DNA of 64,000 bases from assembly GCA_020632095.1 (NCBI GenBank), contig JACKGF010000002.1:16502-80501 (forward strand), read 5' to 3'. Position numbers and translations under genes: made by a program. Positions 3,038 through 48,848 of this stretch are shown piece by piece (the stretch's first letter is position 1; each line of letters begins with the position of its first letter). The notes under the pieces are model-generated. The model was given only the letters and a program-made list of their open reading frames with translations, did no database searches and had not been told where the DNA came from. This stretch comes from Candidatus Nomurabacteria bacterium. GTDB lineage: Bacteria; Patescibacteriota; Minisyncoccia; Phycocordibacterales; UBA918.

Positions 3038-3068
3038 ACCCGCCGAGCTAACGCTCGGCGGGTTTTGC
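3038..3068 (+). terminator. intrinsic terminator after topA
   Basis: GC hairpin cccgccgagc-taac-gctcggcggg followed by ttttgctg. Confidence 0.6.
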
Positions 3069-5202: not shown

Positions 5203-6813
5203 TTAGACAGTAAAATTATTTATTGAGTACAAGTTGCTATCATCACTTTCTGGAGCTTTAGGAGCTGCAGGTTGAGACTGTAGAGTTTCTTGTCTATCAA
5301 CATTTGATTGAGACGGGTTTCTATCAATGAATCCTCCTTGATTTGAATATTGATTATTAACACTAGCTACATAAGGAGGTTTTTCTTCTGGATTGGCAGA
5401 TGGATTTTGCTGAGCTTGGATATTTTGTGAATCTGATTCAGTAGCTTCATTTTTCTCAGCCGGCGCTTCATTATGATTTAGTATTTTTTCATACCACGGT
5501 AGATGAGTTTTTTCTGGTTCAGCTTTTTCTGATTCTACTTGAGTAGCTTGAACTACCTCATTTGATTGAGTCGGTTGAACCGGAGCAACCGGTGACACTA
5601 TCTGAGTTGGCGGGTTGTAGACAAAACTTTCAGCTGGTTTTTCTGTTACCTCGGGCGTATTTTGTACTGGTGTACCATAGGTAACTTTTGGCTCTTCAGT
5701 TTTTTCTGGAGCAACAGTTTCAGACTGACTAAACTTAGAGTAATTATGGATTGACTCTGGCTGATTCACTACTTGCGACGGCTCTTCTTTAGGAGAATCA
5801 GCTTCACTTCTGTTTGACACAGGATTCTCAGTTGGTGAATTATAAGAAGCAAAATCAGGAGCCGGAAAGACTGTGTCACTTGCGAGGTTTTCAGATACAG
5901 CAGTGGCAGTGGCCACTACAGACAATGGCGTATGATCACTCAAACGCTGGGCCATCTCTTGGTGAGATACCATTTTTGCACCTGTTCCTTCATCACGCAT
6001 TCGCTTGAGGATTACTTCCAAATCTTCATTAGAAAAGTAATCAATTGTTAGCTTGCCACCAAAATCGGTCTTTTGGATTTGTACACGAGTTCCAAGAGTT
6101 TCAGTAAACTGTTTTTCAAATTCAATCAAATGTGCATCAATATCATCACCCGACTTTTTCCGTACTTTATCCGTCGCAATTTTACGCACAATTCGTTCCA
6201 CCTCACGTACCGATAGTTTTTTCAATAGGATTTCTCTAAAAATGACTTCTTGTTCCTCTGGACGATCGGTTAACATCAGTAGAGTACGCGCATGACCCTC
6301 ACTCAACTCACCACGCTTAAGCGAAGTTAGAATATGTTCAGGCAAAGCCAATAGACGGATAGAATTGGAAACATATTCTCGACTGCGACCCATCTTCTGG
6401 GCGACTTGAACGTGAGATAATTTGAAAACATCAGCTAATTGTTGAAAAGCTAACGCGCGATCGACCGCATTTAAGTCTTCGCGTTGGAGGTTTTCGATAA
6501 TAGCCAGCTCGAGTTTTTCTTGCTCATTTTGTTCACCATCACGAATTATCACCGGCACCTGTGCCACTCCGGCCAGCTTACTCGCTCGCAAACGACGCTC
6601 ACCCGCAATTAGTTCATACTCCGAGTAAAAAGTACCATCATCGCGATGAATTTCGTTGCGCGTTACCGTCAGTGGTTGCAACACACCATACATCCGGATT
6701 GAATCCGCTAGTTCCTGAAGCTTGTGTTGATCAAACTCCCGTCTTGGCTGAAACGGGTTTGGAACCACTTTTTCAACCTCCACCCAATATATTGAATCAC
6801 CCTGAAATGCCAT
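5203..6813 (-). CDS. parB: ParB/Spo0J-family partition protein with a long low-complexity C-terminal tail
   Basis: ParB box motifs (LIAGERRLRASKLAG, HTH region VAQKMGRSREYVSNSIRLL). The last ~250 aa are P/T/E/Q/S-rich with no recognisable domain. Confidence 0.85.
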   Translation of the reverse strand: MAFQGDSIYWVEVEKVVPNPFQPRREFDQHKLQELADSIRMYGVLQPLTVTRNEIHRDDGTFYSEYELIAGERRLRASKLAGVAQVPVIIRDGEQNEQEKLELAIIENLQREDLNAVDRALAFQQLADVFKLSHVQVAQKMGRSREYVSNSIRLLALPEHILTSLKRGELSEGHARTLLMLTDRPEEQEVIFREILLKKLSVREVERIVRKIATDKVRKKSGDDIDAHLIEFEKQFTETLGTRVQIQKTDFGGKLTIDYFSNEDLEVILKRMRDEGTGAKMVSHQEMAQRLSDHTPLSVVATATAVSENLASDTVFPAPDFASYNSPTENPVSNRSEADSPKEEPSQVVNQPESIHNYSKFSQSETVAPEKTEEPKVTYGTPVQNTPEVTEKPAESFVYNPPTQIVSPVAPVQPTQSNEVVQATQVESEKAEPEKTHLPWYEKILNHNEAPAEKNEATESDSQNIQAQQNPSANPEEKPPYVASVNNQYSNQGGFIDRNPSQSNVDRQETLQSQPAAPKAPESDDSNLYSINNFTV

Positions 6814-6969: not shown

Positions 6970-7051
6970 GCCTCGGTGGCGGAATTGGTAGACGCGCACG
7001 ACTCAAAATCGTGTTCCGAAAGGGGTGAGGGTTCGATTCCCTCCCGAGGCA
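6970..7051 (+). tRNA. tRNA-Leu (anticodon CAA), long variable arm
   Basis: Cloverleaf by eye: acceptor gcctcgg/ccgaggc, anticodon loop cuCAAaa, T-loop ggttcgattcc. CCA is not encoded. Confidence 0.9.
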
Positions 7052-7052
7052 C

Positions 7053-7548
7053 AAAAATCGTGTTCCGAAAGGCTGAAATGATTCGGGGAATCATTTCAGA
7101 AGGTTGCCTGATATTTTATGACGTTAGGAAATAAAATGTCGACAACCTGTACTGCGCCGGTACGGCGGGAGGGTTCGATTCCCTCCCGAGGCACAAGAAA
7201 ACCGCGTTTAGCGGTTTTCTTGTGCCGAGAGAACAGTCTGGGAGACTGTTCGTGGGGGTGTCGAAAAGGTTGCCAGCTGTTTTGGAGCCTGCGACAAAAC
7301 GGCGACAACCTATACTGAACATGTAATGTTCGATTCCCTCCCGAGGCACAAATAACCAACCTGATACGCGCTAGCGTTCAGGTTGTTGTTATTTGTAGCC
7401 TCGGGAGGGGATCGAAAGCCACAGACTCATGTGAATTTCGAAGCGAAGCGGAGAAAGAGAGAGTCGAGGCAGGGTCGTGAGCGACATATTTTTAACGAGT
7501 AAGCGAGTATAAAAATAGTTGACTCCTGACTGATTCCCTCCCGAGGCA
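7053..7548 (+). repeat. three direct repeats of the tRNA-Leu(CAA) 3' end plus one inverted degenerate copy (att-site-like remnants)
   Basis: gagggttcgattccctcccgaggca recurs at 7168-7193, 7328-7348 and 7532-7548. An inverted degenerate copy sits at 7398-7420. Each unit starts with a terminator-like hairpin. Confidence 0.75.
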
Positions 7549-20254: not shown

Positions 20255-20992
20255 TTATTTACCTAAACAGTTTGCAAGCATTACTCTCAATTGAAAAATA
20301 GTATCCGACTTTAATTTAACCCGTAATGAATCTTTTTGGGCATCATTTAACAATTCACCCAAACCATCAAGAATATGTTTGTTATCCATTTTCTCAAGTA
20401 ACTTTATACATTGAACCAAGGTCTCTTCGAATGACATCCCAGATCGAGCCTTAACAATCTCTTGGTTAATAGGCCAGTTATTCTTGGCAAAAAAATTGAC
20501 ATCGAAAATATCACGACTCGTTTTTCCAACTCGCTCATACATAGCCATCAATTTATGGGCAAACATGTCTTCCCGAATCATTACCAACATAGATATTCCC
20601 AACAGTGTCTTCACATCATAGCGAGACCCGAATTGCCGGCGATTGACTTCGATTTTAATATTCTGTGACTGGGGATGATAAGAAATAATATTTAATAAGG
20701 TATATTTTTTTTGGTAAGAATTTTTAATCTCCCCATATTCCTTAACAATTAAATTTATTTTTTCAAACACTTCAGCCTCCTTTGTCTCATCCAACAAATC
20801 GAGATCAATATCTACAGAGTGTCGAGGTAAGCCATAAAACATCATAGCAGCTGTTCCACCTTTGAAGCCCAAATATGGAGAAATGGATGTGTCAGTATAA
20901 ATATCCTTTAAGATCTGCAGTATTGTACTTTTATGCTGGGGATAATCGAATTTCATATAGCTATATTTCATTATAGTCTGCAAAATATTCAT
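20255..20992 (-). CDS. abiEii: AbiEii/AbiGii nucleotidyltransferase toxin (DUF1814)
   Basis: Signature LGFKGGTAAMMFYGLPRHSVDIDLD. The annotated ORF extends to 21040, but the start at Met17 avoids overlap with abiEi. Confidence 0.8.
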   Translation of the reverse strand: MNILQTIMKYSYMKFDYPQHKSTILQILKDIYTDTSISPYLGFKGGTAAMMFYGLPRHSVDIDLDLLDETKEAEVFEKINLIVKEYGEIKNSYQKKYTLLNIISYHPQSQNIKIEVNRRQFGSRYDVKTLLGISMLVMIREDMFAHKLMAMYERVGKTSRDIFDVNFFAKNNWPINQEIVKARSGMSFEETLVQCIKLLEKMDNKHILDGLGELLNDAQKDSLRVKLKSDTIFQLRVMLANCLGK

Positions 20993-21554
20993 CCACCTTT
21001 TCTTGTAAGCGCTTATTTTTATATATTGGCAATATCTCAAAAACCTTTTTCCAATTCAAGTTAGCTAAATTATCAAAATGATAATCTTTACTAACATAAA
21101 GTCGGTCTAAAAATGCCCGCTCTTGAGTTGCAATTGAAAAATTATTTATGTGCTCAACACCAGCACTATTACTTAAAATATCGTCTTTTACTCTAACAAA
21201 CTGAATCATTTGATTTCCAGCTTTAACTTCTCGCTTAATATAAGATGCAACAAAAATGTTTCCATAAAACTGGAAGTTTACACCTTCTCTAGTCAAGACT
21301 GTCTCAAAACTTACATATGAAGGAGTGTAAATCCTAGTAGCTAATTCTAAGCTATTGTAGTCATGATCTTTAGCATAAAATCCTCTATGAACGCGGATTA
21401 ACTTTCCAGATTTAACATATGACTTTAAACGATCGCTCACTACTGTTTTGTTACCCTCCCTCCACAACAAAGCAACATCTTTAGTTGAAAAGATGGTTTT
21501 TGAAGATCTTAATAAAACTTCTAAATATTCTCCTTTTACAGGTTTTTTATCCAT
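20961..21554 (-). CDS. abiEi: AbiEi antitoxin/transcriptional regulator
   Basis: Lies immediately upstream of abiEii on the same strand. AbiEi_4-like N-terminal wHTH (LLWREGNKTVVSDRLKSYVKSGKLIRVHRGFY). Confidence 0.75.
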   Translation of the reverse strand: MDKKPVKGEYLEVLLRSSKTIFSTKDVALLWREGNKTVVSDRLKSYVKSGKLIRVHRGFYAKDHDYNSLELATRIYTPSYVSFETVLTREGVNFQFYGNIFVASYIKREVKAGNQMIQFVRVKDDILSNSAGVEHINNFSIATQERAFLDRLYVSKDYHFDNLANLNWKKVFEILPIYKNKRLQEKVDEYFADYNEI

Positions 21555-31418: not shown

Positions 31419-31904
31419 CTACTTAATCATTCGTCTTTTTTGGTTCATACCACGATGAGTAGACTGCAAACTATGACAATTGGGACATAAAATCCTGAGA
31501 TTTTTTAGTCGATTATCAAGGCGGTCACCATTTATATGATCCAATTCAACAGGGATTCTACCATCTTCAGCCTGTTCTGCCCAGCCACAAATCTCACACT
31601 CAGGTTTCATTAAACCCTCATAAAATAATCTATGTTTCAGCTTATAACTCTGACACTTTGAACCCTTTACTAAAATTTCTGATAATTCACTTTTGGGTAA
31701 AAATGAAAAAATTCGATTCTTTCTCCATCCTTTTCCTGTGAAGTGAGTAGTATTTAGGTTTAATTCTTCAATATTTTGTTTGATTTGCACATAGTTACCA
31801 CCAGCCGGAACTAAGCCCAGGACTTTAATCACTTCTCTAACACTATAAGAGCTCTTTACTGCTTTTTTCAGATCATCATTACTCCATTTTTTCTTACGTG
31901 ACAT
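31419..31904 (-). CDS. HNH endonuclease
   Basis: CEICGW...ELDHINGDRLDNRLKNLRILCPNCH (HNH plus Zn-finger). Confidence 0.8.
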   Translation of the reverse strand: MSRKKKWSNDDLKKAVKSSYSVREVIKVLGLVPAGGNYVQIKQNIEELNLNTTHFTGKGWRKNRIFSFLPKSELSEILVKGSKCQSYKLKHRLFYEGLMKPECEICGWAEQAEDGRIPVELDHINGDRLDNRLKNLRILCPNCHSLQSTHRGMNQKRRMIK

Positions 31905-31999
31905 ATTATTATGGTATAGATATAATTCTAACACAATTTACAAGTACTCCACATAAAAATTTTTATATTTTTGATAAATAGTGCTATAGTGTCACTCAT

Positions 32000-32072: not shown

Positions 32073-32250
32073 CACGACAGTACAAGAGCAGACTGGTAAA
32101 TCCCTGGGTGGAAGTCGAACCAAGGTTCGCCCTGTTACAGAGGCGGTACACCTTTTGGACAGATTATTCTTTCAGTCTAATCTTCCTCAAAAGGTCTTGC
32201 AAAACGCCCCCGGCATTTTGAACCCATAGAGGACTAACAACAAAACGTAT

Positions 32251-33682
32251 GTAATAAAGAAGTAGAAATGTCCTCCCTAAAGAAATAGAAATGTCCTCCC
32301 GCAAGGGAGGACATTTCCTGTATGTTGTTGGTTCATGCACAACAACAAAAACATCATACTGACGGAAGCAGAAAAAGAAAAGGGAGAAATCATTAAAGGG
32401 TGTACTGAGGGTGATTATACAAATAGTGAAGCAGCAGAAAGACTAGGTTTGTCAGTTAGGCAGGTACGAAGACTAAAGCGTAAAGTTGAGGTGTTTGGAG
32501 TGGAAGGAATTCTGCATGGTCTCAAGGGGTCGCAGTCACACCGCAAGATAGACACAAAACAAGAAAAGAAAGTGTTAAAGTTCCTGAAAAAGAAAGACCA
32601 TCACGACTTCGGTCCAACGTTTGCGATGGAAAAGCTTGAGGAATTAGAGAACATCATTCTTGATGTTGGTACCGTTCGTCGCATCATGGTCGACGCTGAT
32701 CTCTGGAAACCCAAACAACAACGAATCAAACAATCACACAGACAGTGGCGCGAGCCAATGCTTCGCTATGGTGAGCTCATACAATACGATGGAAGCTACC
32801 ATGACTGGAACGAAGACGGTGAGGAGGAGTGCCTTCTCAAAGCCATCGACGACGCAACGAGTATTGTTACGAAAGCCGTATTTGACGATCATGAAGGTAT
32901 CGTGCCCACCTTTCGCTTCTGGTGGAAGTATATCGAGCGCCACGGGCGTCCACGGGCCATATACCTAGACAAATTCAGCACATACAAGGTCAATCATAAA
33001 AGCGCACAGGATAACATTCACTTCATGACACAGTTTGAGCGAGCCATGGAAACATTGGACATCAAGATTATCACTGCCCACTCACCAGAAGCAAAAGGTC
33101 GTGTCGAAAGGGGCTTTCGCACACATCAGGACAGGCTCGTGAAGGAACTTCGTCTGGCAAAGAAGAAGAACCAAGACGAGATGAATGACTTTCTCGAACA
33201 CACCTATCTCCCCAAGCACAACGGAACGTTTGGCAGAACTCCACGTGACCCCAGAGACGCTCATCGGCCACTGACAGACATTCTCAAAAAGAAACTCTCG
33301 TCCATATTCTCCAAACACTATCGCCGCATCGTTAAGAACGACTTCACTATTCAATGGAATGGACGATGGTTTCAGCTTCTTAACAATCAACCGACTACGG
33401 TATACAAAAAAGATGAGGTGATTATGGAAGAGTGGCTCGATAACTCCATACACATCCGTCACACACGAAACAAAGAAGTGTATCTGATATATCAAGAATT
33501 ACCGAACAAACCGAAACAGGTACGCCGACCACCGACTGTCTTGGAGCGAAAGAGTACCGCACACAAGCCGGCACCTGATCATCCATGGAGAAAGAAAAGA
33601 TAAAAAAACAAAAATTTGCTCTGACGTATTACACAACGTATTAATTAACTTGAACAGAGGACACTTCTACTTCACTGCAACA
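32251..33682 (+). mobile_element. IS copy 1 (~1432 bp, rve-type DDE transposase; ISNCY/IS1202- or IS481-like)
   Basis: 100% identical to 58235-59666. Terminal inverted repeats GAAGTAGAAATGTCCTC / GAGGACACTTCTACTTC. Flanked by a 17-bp direct repeat ctaacaacaaaacgtat. Confidence 0.85.
32335..33603 (+). CDS. DDE transposase (N-terminal HTH, rve-like core)
   Basis: HTH motif (AAERLGLSVRQVRRLKRK) and a D...D...E triad (YDGSYHDW, IYLDKFSTY, PEAKGRVERGFRT). Confidence 0.85.
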   Translation: MHNNKNIILTEAEKEKGEIIKGCTEGDYTNSEAAERLGLSVRQVRRLKRKVEVFGVEGILHGLKGSQSHRKIDTKQEKKVLKFLKKKDHHDFGPTFAMEKLEELENIILDVGTVRRIMVDADLWKPKQQRIKQSHRQWREPMLRYGELIQYDGSYHDWNEDGEEECLLKAIDDATSIVTKAVFDDHEGIVPTFRFWWKYIERHGRPRAIYLDKFSTYKVNHKSAQDNIHFMTQFERAMETLDIKIITAHSPEAKGRVERGFRTHQDRLVKELRLAKKKNQDEMNDFLEHTYLPKHNGTFGRTPRDPRDAHRPLTDILKKKLSSIFSKHYRRIVKNDFTIQWNGRWFQLLNNQPTTVYKKDEVIMEEWLDNSIHIRHTRNKEVYLIYQELPNKPKQVRRPPTVLERKSTAHKPAPDHPWRKKR

Positions 33683-33748
33683 CTAACAACAAAACGTATT
33701 GCGAAAACAACCAGAATAAGTTACACTCTCGGTCATAAATAAGTATAT

Positions 33749-33821
33749 CCGCCCTTAGCTCAGTTGGTAGAGCAGCTCCCTCTTAAGGAGACGGTCCAAG
33801 GTTCGAGCCCTTGAGGGCGGA
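33749..33821 (+). tRNA. tRNA-Lys (anticodon CTT)
   Basis: Acceptor ccgccct/agggcgg, anticodon loop cuCUUaa. Confidence 0.85.
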
Positions 33822-34121
33822 CAACGTTAAGAAAAATAGTGCTGGTGCACTATTTTTTAGTTGTCCGGGGCGGAGACATAATTTTTCCTCCTTTCCTAGA
33901 GGAAAAATTGTCGAGCCAGGGTCGCAAGTACTTACTAGAATTTGAGCAAAGCGAAAAATTATAGTTAGTAACTTGTGACGACAAATTTGAACGCAGTGAA
34001 AATATGTACGGCCGAATAAATAATCTGGTAGATTATTTTTTTAGGGCTCGAAGCCCGATTGAGATATTTTGTGAGCAGAGCGAAACAAAATATCCAATTG
34101 GGACACTGGTTGTGTAACAAC

Positions 34122-34141
34122 CGAGCCCTTGAGGGCGGACA
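34122..34141 (+). repeat. direct repeat of the tRNA-Lys 3' end (att-like remnant)
   Basis: cgagcccttgagggcggaca lies 300 bp downstream of the tRNA. It is preceded by a ggttgtgtaacaacc hairpin. Confidence 0.6.
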
Positions 34142-34146
34142 ATCGC

Positions 34147-34188
34147 AAAACAAAATTCACCAGTCTTAAGACTGGTGAATTTTGTTTT
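34147..34188. repeat. 42-bp perfect palindrome
   Basis: aaaacaaaattcaccagtcttaagactggtgaattttgtttt. Confidence 0.8.
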
Positions 34189-34464
34189 AGTCAGCAAACT
34201 GCTTTACTGACGGCGATTGTCCGAGCCGCAGGCATGTTTCGAGCGCGCTTCCAAGCGCGAGAAACAGCCGAGGTGGGGTGGCGAACACTTAGTAAATTTA
34301 GCACGAAGTGCATAAATATACTTAGTGATTCGTGACGACAACTTCCGCCTAGGGTTATTCCGCCTAGGGTTACCCTTGGTAAGGCTTTCTTTAGTAGGAT
34401 AACCTCCCCAAAAAAGTAGCCTTGAAATAAAAACTCTGCTATACTCGTCACCGTAACCACTCTT

Positions 34465-34546
34465 GCGCGGGTGGCGAAATTGGTAGACGCGCTAGTCTTA
34501 GGAACTAGTGGAGCAATCCGTGGAGGTTCAATTCCTCTCCCGCGCA
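34465..34546 (+). tRNA. tRNA-Leu (anticodon TAG)
   Basis: Acceptor gcgcggg/cccgcgc, anticodon loop cuUAGga, long variable arm. An extended -10 promoter (TGcTATACT) sits at 34438-34446. Confidence 0.9.
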
Positions 34547-35345
34547 CTGTTCAATAAAATAGCCTTCCCGAAAGGGAGGGTTATTTTATTGGTACAGTGC
34601 GGAGGGAAGAAAAGTCTGGGGGACTTTTCGGGAGGGATTGAAAAGGTTGCCAGCACTTTCTGGAGCTTGCGAACAGAAAGAGCGACAACCTATACTGAAT
34701 TCGTAGAATTCAATTCCTCTCCCGCGCACTGTTCAATAAAATAGCCTTCCCGAAAGGGAGGGTTATTTTATTGGTACAGTGCGGAGGGAAGAAAAGTCTG
34801 GGGGACTTTTCGGGAGGGATTGAAAAGGTTGCCAGCACTTTCTGGAGCTTGCGAACAGAAAGAGCGACAACCTATACTGAATTCGTAGAATTCAATTCCT
34901 CTCCCGCGCACTGTTCAATAAAATAGCCTTCCCGAAAGGGAGGGTTATTTTATTGGTACAGTGCGGAGGGAAGAAAAGTCTGGGGGACTTTTCGGGAGGG
35001 ATTGAAAAGGTTGCCAGCACTTTCTGGAGCTTGCGAACAGAAAGAGCGACAACCTATACTGAATTCGTAGAATTCAATTCCTCTCCCGCGCACTGTTCAA
35101 TAAAATAGCCTTCCCGAAAGGGAGGGTTATTTTATTGGTACAGTGCGGAGGGAAGAAAAGTCTGGGGGACTTTTCGGGAGGGATTGAAAAGGTTGCCAGC
35201 ACTTTCTGGAGCTTGCGAACAGAAAGAGCGACAACCTATACTGAATTCGTAGAATTCAATTCCTCTCCCGCGCACTGTTCAATAAAATAGCCTTCCCGAA
35301 AGGGAGGGTTATTTTATTGAACAGTGCGGAGGGAAACAAAGTCTG
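34547..35345 (+). repeat. 182-bp tandem direct repeat array (4 identical units plus a degenerate fifth). Each unit ends with the last 21 nt of tRNA-Leu(TAG)
   Basis: Units lie at 34547-34728, 34729-34910, 34911-35092 and 35093-35274, with a partial unit from 35275 to about 35345. Each unit begins with a terminator-like hairpin aataaaatagccttccc-gaaa-gggagggttattttatt. Confidence 0.9.
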
Positions 35346-35469
35346 GGGGACTTTTCCTAATACAGAAAATTATACAGCTAGATACATTTACAAACCCTCA
35401 ACTATTTGCTTTATTAGTTATGGAGTTAACTGTTTATAACCAGTAGTACTTTCAGGGAAAGGTTTAAAA

Positions 35470-36000
35470 ATGACCATAATAAGAGTTGGTAGTGGGTTTA
35501 CAAGGAAAGCTAAACCTATACCACCCTTCGAACACTACCAAACACTAGGGACTGTCAGAGTACCAGAAGACCCTAAGACACCACCAGGCCTCTGGTTGCG
35601 TGTAAACTACAACAACACACCAGTAACAGACGATAATCTACCCTACCTGCAGCATAGGAGCTTATCACCAGGAGACCAGCTTCACGTCAGTGTCTTCATC
35701 AGTCATCAAGACCAGACTCTAGAAAACTGCTTAAGGTTCCTTAAACGCAGACACGCCGTATACCCTGGTATAAAAGGACTGTTGTCGGTAGCAACACAAA
35801 TGGGTGATGATTTGCCCGAACACTTATTCAGTGTCCTGTTCCATGGCGACGGCGATGAACAAGAAGTGAGCAATCATTGCTGTAACACTGCATCTTGTAT
35901 CTGCAACAAAAGCCCAGGACTTCCTTCCTTTCTAACTTTCGCCCAAGACGTAAAATTGTTAGCTGGTTTCCCGCTACTATGCTTCAGTGAAATCAACTAG
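35470..36000 (+). CDS. hypothetical protein (possible cargo downstream of the tRNA repeat array)
   Basis: 176-aa ORF followed by a terminator hairpin at 36016-36044. Confidence 0.45.
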   Translation: MTIIRVGSGFTRKAKPIPPFEHYQTLGTVRVPEDPKTPPGLWLRVNYNNTPVTDDNLPYLQHRSLSPGDQLHVSVFISHQDQTLENCLRFLKRRHAVYPGIKGLLSVATQMGDDLPEHLFSVLFHGDGDEQEVSNHCCNTASCICNKSPGLPSFLTFAQDVKLLAGFPLLCFSEIN

Positions 36001-45838: not shown

Positions 45839-45879
45839 GAAAAGTGGGGTGGCTTCCTCCGGAAGCCACCCCACTTTTC
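45839..45879. terminator. perfect 17-bp-stem hairpin
   Basis: aaagtggggtggcttcc-tccg-gaagccaccccacttt. Confidence 0.6.
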
Positions 45880-45888
45880 TTCTACACT

Positions 45889-46322
45889 TTACGTCCAGGA
45901 ATTTGCCCTAGGGAAATATCTGGGACCATTGGTATAGCTGGTTCATTTACAGCTCGCTACCAGCATATTCTCCCTCGGTAGGTCTGAGCTATGCATACAG
46001 AGATACATTCCTTTCAGTCATTATTTTCCAACAATCTGCTTTTCAGTCTTTACTCGTTTACGTCCAGGAATTTGCCCTAGGGAAATATCTGGGACCATTG
46101 GTATAGCTGGTTCATTTACAGCTCGCTACCAGCATATTCTCCCTCGGTAGGTCTGAGCTATGCATACAGAGATACATTCCTTTCAGTCATTATTTTCCAA
46201 CAATCTGCTTTTCAGTCTTTACTCGTTTACGTCCAGGAATTTGCCCTAGGGAAATATCTGGGACCATTGGTATAGCTGGTTCATTTACAGCTCGCTACCA
46301 GCATATTCTCCCTCGGTAGGTC
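45889..46322. repeat. 169-bp tandem direct repeat, 2.6 copies, non-coding
   Basis: Copies start at 45889, 46058 and 46227 and are identical. The third copy is truncated. 169 is not a multiple of 3 and no ORF is present. Confidence 0.9.
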
Positions 46323-46379: not shown

Positions 46380-48848
46380 TTAAACAAATACAACACTAGC
46401 GATCTCGTCACCAGCGCGCATCTTCATCACTCGCACTCCTTGAGTTTGACGACCGAGGGTTGGGACATCCTTAAGTGGCAACTTAATCACTTGACCCTTC
46501 TTGCTCATAATCACCAACTCTCCTTCCATACGCTCTTCCCCAGTTACAATCAAACCACGAACGATTTTTCCAGTCTTACTAGTTACTTTAGCTGTCTTAA
46601 TACCAGAACCACCACGCTTTTGGGTCTTATACTCCTTAGCTGGAGTCGATTTACCATAACCAAGCTCAGTCACAATCAACACCTCCCTATCTTTATCGCC
46701 TGATTTTAGAACCTCAGCCGACACAATAATGTCACCCTTAACCAACTTCATACCAGTTACTCCGGCCGCTGTTCGCCCCATTTGTCTAATATCAGTCTCC
46801 TTAAATCGGATTGCCTGACCTTTTTGCGTAATTAGAGACACCTCATCACCCTTACCAACAAACTGCGCTGCTATGAGTGAGTCACCTTCTCGCAAAGTAA
46901 TCGCAATCAAACCACTACGACGCACATCTTTAAATGAAGCTGCGTCACTCTTCTTAGCCACACCATCTTTAGTAACCATCATAAGTGACCAATCACCAGC
47001 CCAATCTTCTTTCCGAACAGCCAGCACAGAAGTTATCTTTTCTTCAGAACTTAACGACAGGAAGTTCATAATAGACTTACCTTTAGTGGCTCGTCTTCCT
47101 TCTGGAATCTCATACATCTTGCATTGGAAAACTTTTCCACCATCAGTGAAGAATAGTAGGTCACTGTGAGCTGACGTGGTAAGTAAAGTGGTTACCATAT
47201 CCTCCTCCTTGGTATTTAGGTCGACCACCCCTACTCCTCCACGTTTTTGGGTTTTGTATTCAGTTGGGTTTGTACGTTTTACGTAGCCACCCTTGGTAAG
47301 TACCAGCACACTTTCGTCATCTGGAATCAGGTCCTCTTGACTCATTTGTTTAACCCCTCCCTTAACAATCTTGGTCCGACGATCGTCACCAAACTTATCA
47401 GCCACTTCTTGTAATTCAGTTTTAACGATATTCATCATTTTAGCCTTACTTTTCAGAATAGCTTCTAGTTCTTTAATCAGTTTCTGAATCATTGCTAACT
47501 CATCTTCAATCTTCTTGCGTTCCAAGCCAGCCAACTTCTGCAACCGCATATCAAGAATCGCTTGAGCCTGAATATCTGAGAATTTAAACTCTTTCATTAA
47601 AGCCGCGTGAGCCGTCGGTACATCCTTTGAAGCACGAATTAGCTTGATAATTTTGTCGATATGATCAAGCGCTTTCTTTAGACCAAGCAAAATATGTTCG
47701 CGGTCTTTAGCCTTCCCTAAATCATACTCGGTCCGACGACGAATCACTTCTGCTCGGTGCTTGATATATTCCTGCAAAATACCCTTCAAAGATAAAGTTT
47801 GTGGAATACCGTTCACCAAAGCTACCATGTTGTAGTGGAAAGTATCTTCTAGTTGGGTGTGCTTGTAGAGTTTATTTAAAACTGTTTGTGGCTGAGCACC
47901 AACCTTCAACTCAATTACTACTCGAATATCAGAAGTTGACTCATCCCGCATTTCTCGGATACCTTCAATCTTTTTTTCTCGGACCAAATTAGCAATCTTT
48001 TCTTGCATGTCAGCCTTATTGACTCGGAACGGAATTGAAGTAATCACAATTGAGAAAGCTCCCCGTTTATCTTCAACGATTTCCGCCTCACCGCGCACCA
48101 CAACACCACCCCGTCCATTTGCATAGGCTTGAGCTATAGCTTTCTTATCAAAGGCAATTCCGCCAACTGGAAAGTCTGGACCCTGAACATGCTTAAGCAG
48201 GTCATCAGTTGATGCTTCCGGATCATCAATCAAATGATTAGTGGCCGCTACCACCTCACGCAGGTTGTGTGGGGGAATATTAGTTGCCATTCCAACGGCA
48301 ATACCAAGTGAACCTAGTAAAAGCAAATTAGGAGCAGCTGCTGGTAATACCGTTGGTTCCTTCTTAGTACCATCAAAGTTTGGTCGCCAGTCAACCGTGT
48401 CTTTCTCTAAATCACGAAGCATTTCCTCGGAAATTTTGGACATCTTAGCCTCAGTGTAACGATAAGCCGCCGCACTATCGCCGTCGATGGAACCGAAGTT
48501 ACCCTGCCCTAAAACCAGTGGATAACGTGTGGAAAAACCCTGTGCCAACTTAACCATTGCCTCATACACAGCCGAGTCTCCATGAGGGTGAAAACTACCA
48601 AGAACGTCTCCTACTACAGTCGCCGATTTCTTGAACTTTGCTGTAGAGGTCAATCCGTTTAGACGCATTGAGTATAAAATACGACGGTGAACCGGTTTTA
48701 AACCATCTCGCACATCAGGCAAAGCCCGTTGCGTAATAACAGACATCGCATAATCGAGATACGCTGTCTCCATTTCGCCTGCAATACTTTGCATTACGAT
48801 TCCTTTTCTTGGGTCGATTGATTCCTGGGCTGGTGACTTTTTCGGCAT
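46380..48848 (-). CDS. gyrA: DNA gyrase subunit A
   Basis: Active-site Tyr region (AAMRYTE), QRDR motif, and C-terminal beta-pinwheel repeats. Confidence 0.95.

Follow-up and report, generated by a model that had tools for sequence, protein, structure and literature searches.

A tandem array begins inside a tRNA-Leu(UAG) gene of a Candidatus Nomurabacteria bacterium (NCBI assembly GCA_020632095.1, contig JACKGF010000002.1, positions 16,502 to 80,501, a stretch of 64,000 nucleotides that was analysed as a whole and is called the window here). The tRNA gene was called at 34465–34547 by ARAGORN and at 34465–34546 by the Rfam tRNA model. Tandem Repeats Finder (TRF) reported a period of 182 bp with 4.6 copies and 99% matches over 34527–35356, and a base-by-base comparison showed that the four units between 34527 and 35254 are 100% identical, as had been stated in the initial annotation, which was made from the letters alone. 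The fifth copy (35255 to ~35356) matches over ~101 nt with one 1-nt deletion and three substitutions, is truncated right after the element called hairpin A, and is followed by unrelated sequence. The tRNA gene and the repeat units are the following.

34465–34546, plus strand: tRNA-Leu(UAG) gene (ARAGORN, Rfam tRNA model, sequence).
34527–34708, plus strand: unit 1, consisting of the tRNA-end copy X, a terminator-like hairpin, the acceptor part of the inverted copy X', hairpin A, the T-arm part of X', and the core (TRF, exact comparison).
34709–34890, plus strand: unit 2, 100% identical to unit 1 (exact comparison).
34891–35072, plus strand: unit 3, 100% identical to unit 1 (exact comparison).
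35073–35254, plus strand: unit 4, 100% identical to unit 1 (exact comparison).
35255–35356, plus strand: older partial unit (the Y variant), with X, the hairpin, the acceptor part of X' and hairpin A only (sequence comparison).

Every 182-bp unit opens with T54–A73 of tRNA-Leu(UAG) (TTCAATTCCTCTCCCGCGCA), and the first copy of X is the final 20 nt of the gene itself (34527–34546). The initial annotation had given the last 21 nt of the tRNA as the repeated part; the shared segment in fact comprises 20 nt of the tRNA followed by trailer, which starts at the 21st base. In each unit X is followed by a long terminator-like hairpin, with arms CGCACTGT and ACAGTGCG around CCTTCCCgaaaGGGAGG, and a T-run; in unit 1 the tRNA 3' end and trailer (CGCACTGTTCAATAAAATAGCCTTCCC) pair with GGGAGGGTTATTTTATTGgtACAGTGCG, and the apex of the hairpin is a terminator-like stem that precedes the T-run. 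Beyond hairpin A, the segment CGGGAGGGATTGAA is complementary to the T-loop, T-stem and acceptor bases of the next X and is separated by AAAA from a hairpin called P2, while the final three bases of the hairpin P3 are already T54–C56 of the next X copy. The fold predicted for a unit together with the next tRNA-end copy has an energy of -94.6 kcal/mol (z = -8.0 relative to shuffles). The parts of unit 1, and the matches of all four units to the family model introduced below, are located as follows.

34543–34601, plus strand: long hairpin of unit 1 (inverted-repeat scan, terminator scan).
34609–34629, plus strand: hairpin A, GAAAAGTCtgggGGACTTTTC (sequence, fold).
34629–34642, plus strand: 5' strand of helix P1, i.e., the T-arm part of X', CGGGAGGGATTGAA (covariance model, complementarity).
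34645–34690, plus strand: P2 hairpin, GGTTGCC...GCGACAACC, whose inner stem covaries and whose tip is variable (covariation counts).
34691–34711, plus strand: junction TATACTG, then P3, GAATTC-GTA-GAATTC (covariation, covariance model).
34623–34733, plus strand: covariance-model match to the family module, 91 bits.
34805–34915, 34987–35097 and 35169–35279, plus strand: identical covariance-model matches.

The region is non-coding and dominated by hairpins, as the initial annotation held. Its exclusion of a CRISPR array was also correct, the sequence between the 20-nt repeats being identical in all four units, with no variable spacers. Nor are the units tRNA or tRNA-like genes, as ARAGORN and Rfam call only seven true tRNAs in the window and none of the units.

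The conserved module of ~100 nt noted in the initial annotation is real and defines a family that extends across the Patescibacteria. When one genome per species was scanned with the pattern GGTTGCC-N(20–45)-CAACCTRTACTG, at least 119 loci were obtained, about half of them chance matches in coding DNA, and at least ~60 unmistakable module copies with full context were recognised. The pattern was too loose, and the family sample was gathered with its fixed words, GGTTGCC and CAACCTRTACTG. A covariance model built from 54 module copies found 102 copies in 68 sources (E ≤ 0.001), all on Patescibacteria-type contigs. The contigs bearing true copies are labelled Saccharibacteria, Kaiserbacteria, Parcubacteria, Paceibacteria, Nomurabacteria, and 'Patescibacteria group', and the remaining true copies are on oddly labelled or unclassified bins, for some of which the same tRNA synteny is visible. 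The order tRNA-Cys, tRNA-Leu(UAA), tRNA-Lys(CUU), tRNA-Leu(UAG) plus module is common to the window and to several of these contigs, and the window is probably part of a Patescibacteria chromosome of Kaiserbacteria-like kind. The family is phylum-wide and present at no fewer than 27 tRNA species; neither the family nor the inverted tRNA-end copy in each unit had been seen in the initial annotation. No Rfam family matches the module in 33700–35500, even at E ≤ 10 (cmscan), and a metagenome scan with a unit-specific 37-mer gave zero matches.

The secondary structure of the module is conserved by compensatory changes. Among the 54 sequences of the model, paired cells amount to 90.5%, as compared with 77% in column shuffles, and changes on both sides were found in 22 of 29 pairs. 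The covariation score is 0.415 versus 0.161 in shuffles, none of 500 being as high, and slid partners score 0.07–0.12. In the 102 model-collected copies 28 of 29 pairs covary, the P2 base included, in an alignment that was fitted to the covariance model and therefore leans towards the structure. The P2 base, which had been frozen by the search words, occurs as GGTTG/CAACC, CCTTG/CAAGG, CTTTTG/CAAAAG, and CGATTG/CAATTG. The counts of G·T versus A·C are 16:0 in P2, 4:1 in P3, and 58:26 in P1, and because G·T exceeds A·C the fold is held to be selected on the tRNA-sense strand, as either a transcript or single-stranded DNA. The core is flanked by TCGAA...TTCGA, and the order of elements in a family member, or cassette, is X', AAAA, P2, UGUACUG, P3 with its GUA loop, and X. 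We propose that X'-core-X forms a three-way junction of P1 (X' with X), P2 (base and inner stem), and P3 (GUA loop). The junction and loop bases AAAA, UGUACUG, and GUA are conserved across the family.

Several details of the module were noted in passing. A promoter-like TTGCGA-18-TATACT lies within the module at 34667–34696 and at the same offset in each unit, from the P2 loop to the junction. Its TATACT derives from the TATACTG variant of the junction, which is TGTACTG in most family members, and a module-internal promoter was accordingly rejected as a feature of the family. In several copies (L084, 1895–1990; L059, 5705–5760; L007; and L095, 7190–7220), the GUA loop of P3 contains a further small element (GTAAgCAAGcTTTCTT..ACTGcATTCGC), which points to this loop as an insertion site in its own right. 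Hairpin A is an optional branch within the family and has the loop consensus CUGGGAG. Similar hairpins (…ACAGTCCGGCGGACTGT… and …GAAACATACTGGGAGTATGTTTC…) are found inside truncated tRNA copies in L047 (~1110–1145) and L087 (~5975–6010), and hairpin A may be an independent small palindromic repeat.

A fold of this kind raises the possibility that the units are genes for structured non-coding RNAs, which would be transcribed together with the tRNA and excised by the enzymes of tRNA processing, as in the case of the RtT RNA of Escherichia coli. The X'/X helix would then mimic the stack of acceptor and T-stem and provide a handle for processing or stabilisation, or would act as an antisense or decoy for the tRNA 3' end; the core would bind a cellular partner, and arrays would raise dosage. 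We consider such RNA genes, the main rival of the interpretation favoured below, possible but doubtful, and compatible with a mobile origin of the units. The covariation in all helices, the conserved junction and loop bases, the very stable predicted fold, and the G·U bias of the sense strand argue in their favour, and the bias would be compatible with release of the unit as a stable RNA.

The relationship of the module to tRNA genes bears on this question in both directions. A same-strand tRNA is located within 200 nt upstream of 60 of the 102 copies and just downstream of 9, while an opposite-strand neighbour was found for 4; the tRNAs adjoining module copies represent 27 anticodon types. 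This strict co-orientation (69 versus 4) favours co-transcribed RNAs and, with the strong covariation and the sense-strand bias, keeps alive the suggestion of the initial annotation that an RNA is transcribed with the tRNA. The subtypes of the module also follow the tRNA type across distant Patescibacteria, e.g., hairpin A with tRNA-Gln and tRNA-Met, as RNA genes retained with their tRNAs might. Against excision from a tRNA transcript stands the terminator-like hairpin with its T-run, which is located between tRNA and module in most copies; because it intervenes, the active form, if it is RNA, would rely on read-through.

The copy X consists of 20–25 nt of the 3' end of the neighbouring tRNA, from position 53/54, and is exact over 14–24 nt in ~30 loci. 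In 26 of 37 cases the identity to the tRNA begins at position 53 or 54; it extends 1–7 nt past the discriminator. The units are therefore bounded by the tRNA 3' end in the way that an att-type repeat would be, in agreement with the initial annotation. X', the complement of X, precedes the core; it extends over 25 nt without a mismatch in L062 and over 16–18 nt in several other loci, and is split by hairpin A in some subtypes. At positions of G·U pairs in the tRNA stem, X' has the Watson-Crick complement of X rather than the base of the tRNA 5' strand in 19 of 21 informative cases, from which it follows that X' was copied from X and does not derive from the 5' half of the tRNA. For mere pairing as RNA, a templated, perfect X' would be unnecessary, as G·U would serve an RNA helix equally well, and this is a further point against RNA genes. 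A site-specific inversion between X and X' was likewise rejected, as no flipped cores were seen.

Several apparent orphan modules follow tRNAs that were missed by ARAGORN because they carry group I introns. Two such genes with group I intron-like sequence (…GATATAGTCC…) and a cassette after them are L084 1523–1760 and L099 5560–5790. Group I introns are known in tRNA genes of Patescibacteria, where they are self-splicing, longer than 200 nt, and inserted in the anticodon loop at 35/36 (PMC13011429). The module itself was rejected as a group I intron on account of its size (~80–110 nt), its position outside an intact tRNA, its junction at 53|54, and the lack of any intron-family match. In L026 and L043, the tails of the cassettes differ from the resident tRNA and resemble another allele of the same tRNA. 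Between L026 on the one hand and L043 and L053 on the other, identical cores stand beside different tRNAs.

The covariance model identified seven module copies in the window, behind tRNA-Leu(CAA), tRNA-Lys, and tRNA-Leu(UAG). Those outside the array, along with related segments, are the following.

7080–7189, plus strand: 'type B' family member, unit 1 behind tRNA-Leu(CAA) (covariance model, X map).
7246–7353, plus strand: family member, unit 2 behind tRNA-Leu(CAA) (covariance model, X map).
7354–7548, plus strand: third unit behind tRNA-Leu(CAA), with a different core (sequence, X map).
34033–34144, plus strand: divergent family member 3' of tRNA-Lys(CUU) (covariance-model match of 46 bits, outside the seed alignment).
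32100–32119, plus strand: remnant of X' complementary to the tRNA-Cys 3' end, ATCCCTGGGTGGAAGTCGAA (X map).

A repeat scan showed that behind tRNA-Leu(CAA) (6970–7051) three differing units are stacked, each ending in the 3' end of that tRNA. Before the first lies a copied anticodon-loop and variable-arm segment, and after it the T-arm and 3' end are repeated in full (7174–7193); the second ends with an exact copy of the tRNA 3' end (7329–7348); and the third has X' at 7397–7416 and a partial X at 7529–7548. The member behind tRNA-Lys(CUU) lacks the search words, having the P2 base CGATTG/CAATTG instead of GGTTG/CAACC, and ends in a copy of the tRNA-Lys 3' end (34120–34139) in which the last 18 nt of the tRNA are identical. 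The remnant behind tRNA-Cys has 3 mismatches in 20, with 1 mismatch in the 13-mer of the T-arm, and is followed by a degenerate core that an insertion sequence (IS) copy abuts. A 'type C' segment was also observed three times in the tRNA-Leu(CAA) and tRNA-Lys stacks (7455–7530, 33910–33990, and 34262–34345). It comprises GTCGAGsCAGGGTCG..., a promoter-like TTGAGC-17-TATAGT, and TTAGTrAyTyGTGACGACAA, and is bounded by tRNA-end or anti-tRNA-end copies.

The layout of the unit 7080–7189 is mirrored, as it is in six other loci. The mirror order begins with a copy of tRNA positions 1–53, or of the anticodon and variable-arm part, and continues with hairpin A, P2, P3, a short T-loop palindrome, a spacer with a TATAAT-like box, and finally the intact tRNA. 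Since its junction is also after G53, the standard and the mirror forms may formally both be regarded as 53|54 insertions, each supplying anew the half of the gene that it displaces. Single tRNA genes with cassettes on both sides, mirror upstream and standard downstream, were seen in L042, L045, L087, and L036.

Other copies depart further from the standard layout. In L059 and L003, the module lies in the 5' ends of protein genes (one rnhB-like with GIDEAGRG, one glycosyltransferase-like), with a truncated first version of the N-terminal sequence before it and, after it, a diverged second version that runs into the intact gene. In L094, L017, L071, and window 7354–7548, X'/X arms of the same kind enclose unrelated cores. 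L095 has a patatin-like and an ice-binding/pilin gene between its three tRNA-Asn-type modules (at 3067, 4738, and 7111), and in L090 a Schlafen/AlbA_2-HATPase_c_4 gene, an HD-domain gene, and genes of unknown kind alternate with seven modules. Decayed remnants of the module are common, and its presence is patchy among orthologous tRNAs. The copies inside protein-gene 5' ends, the unrelated cores within like arms, and this patchiness and decay all weigh against units whose sole role is that of an RNA processed from the tRNA transcript.

The 176-aa open reading frame (ORF) downstream of the array was used as a handle for further contigs. Identical contigs were found in NCBI assembly GCA_020428725.1 and in several metagenomes. 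In a contig from another metagenome (L120), the flanks are 100% identical to the window, but the Leu(UAG) locus has zero full units, and the tRNA is followed directly by sequence identical to the Y variant. We take this contig as a real allele, because the collapse of a four-unit genome at k=141 cannot produce its junction of tRNA 5' context and Y variant. Across the whole three-unit Leu(CAA) locus, that sample matches the window with 100% identity, so that the 728-bp difference at Leu(UAG) must be very recent. The identity of the four units, read in the initial annotation as very recent amplification or ongoing homogenisation, is most simply explained by unequal crossing-over rather than by four separate insertions. 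The fifth unit, called decaying in that annotation, is better described as an older resident partial unit, given its identity with the sequence after the tRNA in the zero-unit allele. The four units may have been inserted within a shared block of 65 nt or may have been deleted by recombination between the first and last blocks; the comparison proves the instability of the locus and not the direction of change.

This natural strain without any full unit at the locus argues against RNA genes, and it is relevant to a purely local explanation, namely that slippage or unequal crossing-over duplicated a tRNA trailer by accident, with no family, function, or mobility involved. The exact identity of the four units is what such an accident would leave, and a difference of zero versus four units between near-identical strains is a product of direct-repeat recombination. 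The same events would not generate 102 copies with compensatory changes beside 27 tRNA species in dozens of genomes, and we consider a purely local accident quite improbable. Slippage explains the amplification and not the unit, and survives only as the proximate cause of the copy number.

It is still less probable, to the point of being negligible, that the array or its copy number is an artefact of assembly. Tandem repeats longer than the reads are often mis-assembled, and the number of four units is based on the window's own assembly only. Five other, independent short-read assemblies of the same organism, however, break their contigs exactly at the border of the Leu(UAG) array, as is expected for a real repeat longer than the k-mer, and three end at the Leu(CAA) repeats. 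In addition, tandem module copies occur in two unrelated metagenome-assembled genomes (L093, L101), and the junction of the zero-unit contig excludes a collapse, as noted above.

The closest precedent for this architecture is in E. coli. In E. coli K-12, an array of 178 bp x3.1, annotated rttR/tpr, overlaps the last 19 nt of tyrV. The tyrT/tyrV repeats (RtT RNA, RF00391) resemble the cassette array in having tandem units of ~180 bp that start within the last ~19–20 nt of a tRNA, in a region that is non-coding or nearly so. As read from the sequence, in the tyrT unit, too, an inverted tRNA end (GGGGAAGGAT) is followed by a structured core and then by a direct copy (AATCCTTCCCCCACCACCA). On inspection by eye of 1286700–1287330 (L136), each 178-bp unit resembles the 3' third of tRNA-Tyr, with an insert of ~75 nt after the T-loop TTCGA and an inverted tRNA end before it. 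The tyrT region is also reported to be enriched, under certain stresses, in preparations of circular DNA. A single repeat unit encodes the rttR RNA (PMC3318445, citing Bösl and Kersten 1991), and the function of the tyrT repeats is still called unknown (bioRxiv 10.1101/2024.07.17.603846). The rttR annotation of an array with the X'-core-X layout offers a precedent for RNA genes. RtT has no match in 33700–35500 at E ≤ 10 (cmscan), and our module model scores 6.9 bits on the E. coli tyrT locus; the architecture is thus shared, with no homology of sequence or structure. Furthermore, the E. coli unit retains the T-stem 5' strand and half of the T-loop before the insert and is known from one tRNA operon of enterobacteria, whereas the cassette family is present at 27 tRNA types across a phylum and includes mirror-image and gene-bracketing forms.

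The cassettes also bear comparison with integron attC cassettes, which form arrays beside a fixed site and each end in an imperfect to perfect inverted repeat that folds as a single strand around a variable or lineage-specific centre. The attC structure is maintained by covariation and is active on one strand; X'-core-X folds, covaries and is biased towards one strand, and in both cases a cassette can be empty or have one accessory gene (here L095 and L090). As regards recombination, the likeness is a functional analogy. In contrast to integrons, the cassette family has no intI-type integrase nearby (58 loci and the 29 window ORFs), its arms are copies of the host tRNA rather than R/L boxes, and it occupies many insertion loci per genome and not one platform. 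Like tRNA-targeting islands, cis-mobilizable elements (CIMEs), and tycheposon remnants, the cassettes keep the tRNA intact by a direct repeat of its 3' end (here exact over 14–24 nt), and several elements, with decayed distal copies, may accrete behind one tRNA. They differ from such islands in the size of the unit (110–180 bp), the lack of an integrase in 58 loci, the inverted copy of the att-type repeat, the covarying RNA-like core, and the mirror copies that restore the 5' part of a gene. In CTXphi/RS1, two inverted copies in a folded single strand rebuild a duplex that looks like the chromosomal target, and tandem arrays are characteristic. The likeness to the cassette array is one of a shared idea and serves as a lead only; here there are no phage genes and no dif/Xer context, and a stage of single-stranded DNA is hypothetical.

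Several further candidates were considered and rejected. A known small RNA is not supported by Rfam at E ≤ 10, and the same holds for small ribozymes, the hammerhead included, for which the order of the junction strands does not fit either. A cyanobacterial origin, to which GC content and HIP1-like words had pointed, and NsiR1-like arrays were dismissed because the tRNA synteny and all relatives are those of Patescibacteria and there is no Rfam match. A type III toxin-antitoxin system (ToxIN-like) is contradicted by the downstream 176-aa ORF, which has no Pfam match and is unchanged in the allele without full units. An origin from a miniature inverted-repeat transposable element or another IS derivative does not agree with inverted arms that change with the neighbouring tRNA, and the IS copies of the window (HTH; HTH_38+rve) share nothing with the module. 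For TnpB/omega-RNA (scaffold and 3' guide), the repeated 422-aa ORF is an HTH transposase, and there is no TnpB near modules.

Taken together, we favour the interpretation, to which we assign a probability of about 0.5, that the array consists of four copies of a non-autonomous, non-coding insertion cassette which carries a cis-acting module active as a single strand and was amplified by unequal crossing-over. The architecture, the family, the covariation, the strand bias, the 53|54 junction, the templating of X', and the polymorphism in copy number are demonstrated by the data, and from them we infer mobility as the origin, action as a single strand, an enzyme supplied in trans, and crossing-over as the step of amplification. 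Evidence of the type expected from mobility includes the zero-versus-four allele, the stacked units, the remnants, the mirror copies, the copies in protein genes, the bracketed accessory genes, and the foreign-looking tails. The tiny tRNA-targeting element suggested in the initial annotation is supported by the polymorphism, the stacking, the junction at 53|54 in 26 of 37 cases, and the copies in protein genes or around accessory genes, and its description as lacking an integrase was accurate; the term satellite-like is not supported.

A number of observations weigh against an insertion cassette. No true module copy was found in a viral contig collection scanned with the module pattern, only six chance matches, and a phage or satellite origin was rejected on this account. 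In 58 loci examined to 3.5 kb from the module, neither a recombinase, a transposase nor a reverse transcriptase was found, nor any other protein that recurs; the neighbours are housekeeping genes. No tyrosine or serine recombinase is present among the 29 window ORFs, in which the only integrase domain belongs to one IS30-type rve transposase. The zero-versus-four difference can be obtained by homologous recombination alone and is not proof of insertion or excision. The agreement of module subtype with tRNA type across distant genomes also fits long vertical inheritance of a useful RNA, and in most copies the intervening terminator-like hairpin would impose read-through on an RNA form. In the mirror copies it is the opposite side of 53|54 that carries the homology, an arrangement not predicted by a classical tyrosine-integrase crossover. 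Finally, the arms match 27 different tRNAs, for which a single mechanism would have to account.

In the proposed mechanism, the cassette would be targeted to the boundary of T-stem and T-loop in tRNA genes, position 53|54, and rarely to the 5' end of another gene. It brings a replacement for the part displaced, i.e., T54 to the 3' end and a terminator or, in the mirror form, a promoter and positions 1–53, so that the tRNA stays intact. X' would pair with X and clamp the two-hairpin core (P2, UGUACUG, P3) into a three-way junction, and X'-core-X would be the cis-acting site, working as the tRNA-sense single strand in the form of a transcript or single-stranded DNA. The enzyme that handles it would be encoded elsewhere in the genome. 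As one possibility, the universal T-loop TTCGA may seed a hairpin that is then perfected by intrastrand template switching, which would match the arms to the tRNA. One cassette beside an older partial copy would create direct repeats of 65–182 bp, on which unequal crossing-over or replication slippage could act, and the simplest account of four identical units here and none in the sister strain would be such an event.

More tentatively, and with distinctly lower probability, Patescibacteria may possess a hitherto unrecognised cassette-insertion system that lands at the universally conserved T-loop boundary of tRNAs (53|54) and occasionally at conserved gene 5' ends. Its cis element, a folded single strand with the templated X' paired to X around the three-way-junction core, might serve an unlinked recombinase in the manner of attC, or might be an RNA whose guide programmes insertion, and the E. 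coli tyrT/RtT repeats might be a relic of the same principle.

Further features of the window may be recorded. The 29 ORFs include two IS transposases, an AbiEii/AbiEi pair, an HNH protein, and pilin-like proteins. An identical IS pair (32250–33681 and 58234 to ~59665) encodes the 422-aa HTH transposase, with a 23-bp x2 repeat before each copy. The copy behind tRNA-Cys, which abuts the degenerate tRNA-Cys cassette, has an 18-bp direct repeat (ACTAACAACAAAACGTAT) on both sides (32233 and 33682). The HNH endonuclease ORF (31419–31934, minus strand) is situated between tRNA-Leu(UAA) and tRNA-Cys, and elsewhere only the same IS-bearing arrangement of this gene was recovered. An AbiEii-type nucleotidyltransferase toxin and an AbiEi antitoxin are encoded at 20255–21554 (minus strand). 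Relatives (MenT) act as modifiers of tRNA acceptor ends, and this may have some bearing, or none, on mimics of tRNA ends. A second perfect tandem array (45888–46322; 169 bp x2.6, 100% matches) has a period that is not a multiple of three and is intergenic, downstream of an 822-aa ORF (46380–48848, minus strand); it adjoins a strong hairpin (45842–45878), and its sequence is unrelated to the tRNA cassette.

The phylum-wide family is a previously unrecognised form of an old kind of tRNA-linked repeat, with a well-supported structure and clear signs of turnover. The matched arms, with X' templated from X at 27 tRNAs, pose a concrete mechanistic question. On a practical level, tRNA loci with cassette repeats are places where short-read assemblies break and where annotation can overlook tRNA fragments or record false ones. 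If the proposed interpretation is true, the E. coli tyrT repeats, a fifty-year-old curiosity, would be one case of a general cassette design that docks at tRNAs and rebuilds the gene, and a conserved, covarying, RNA-like module absent from Rfam would enlarge the very small known non-coding repertoire of Patescibacteria. The reduced genomes of these bacteria would then have a means, independent of a linked integrase, of gaining and stacking small cassettes, some of them with accessory genes.

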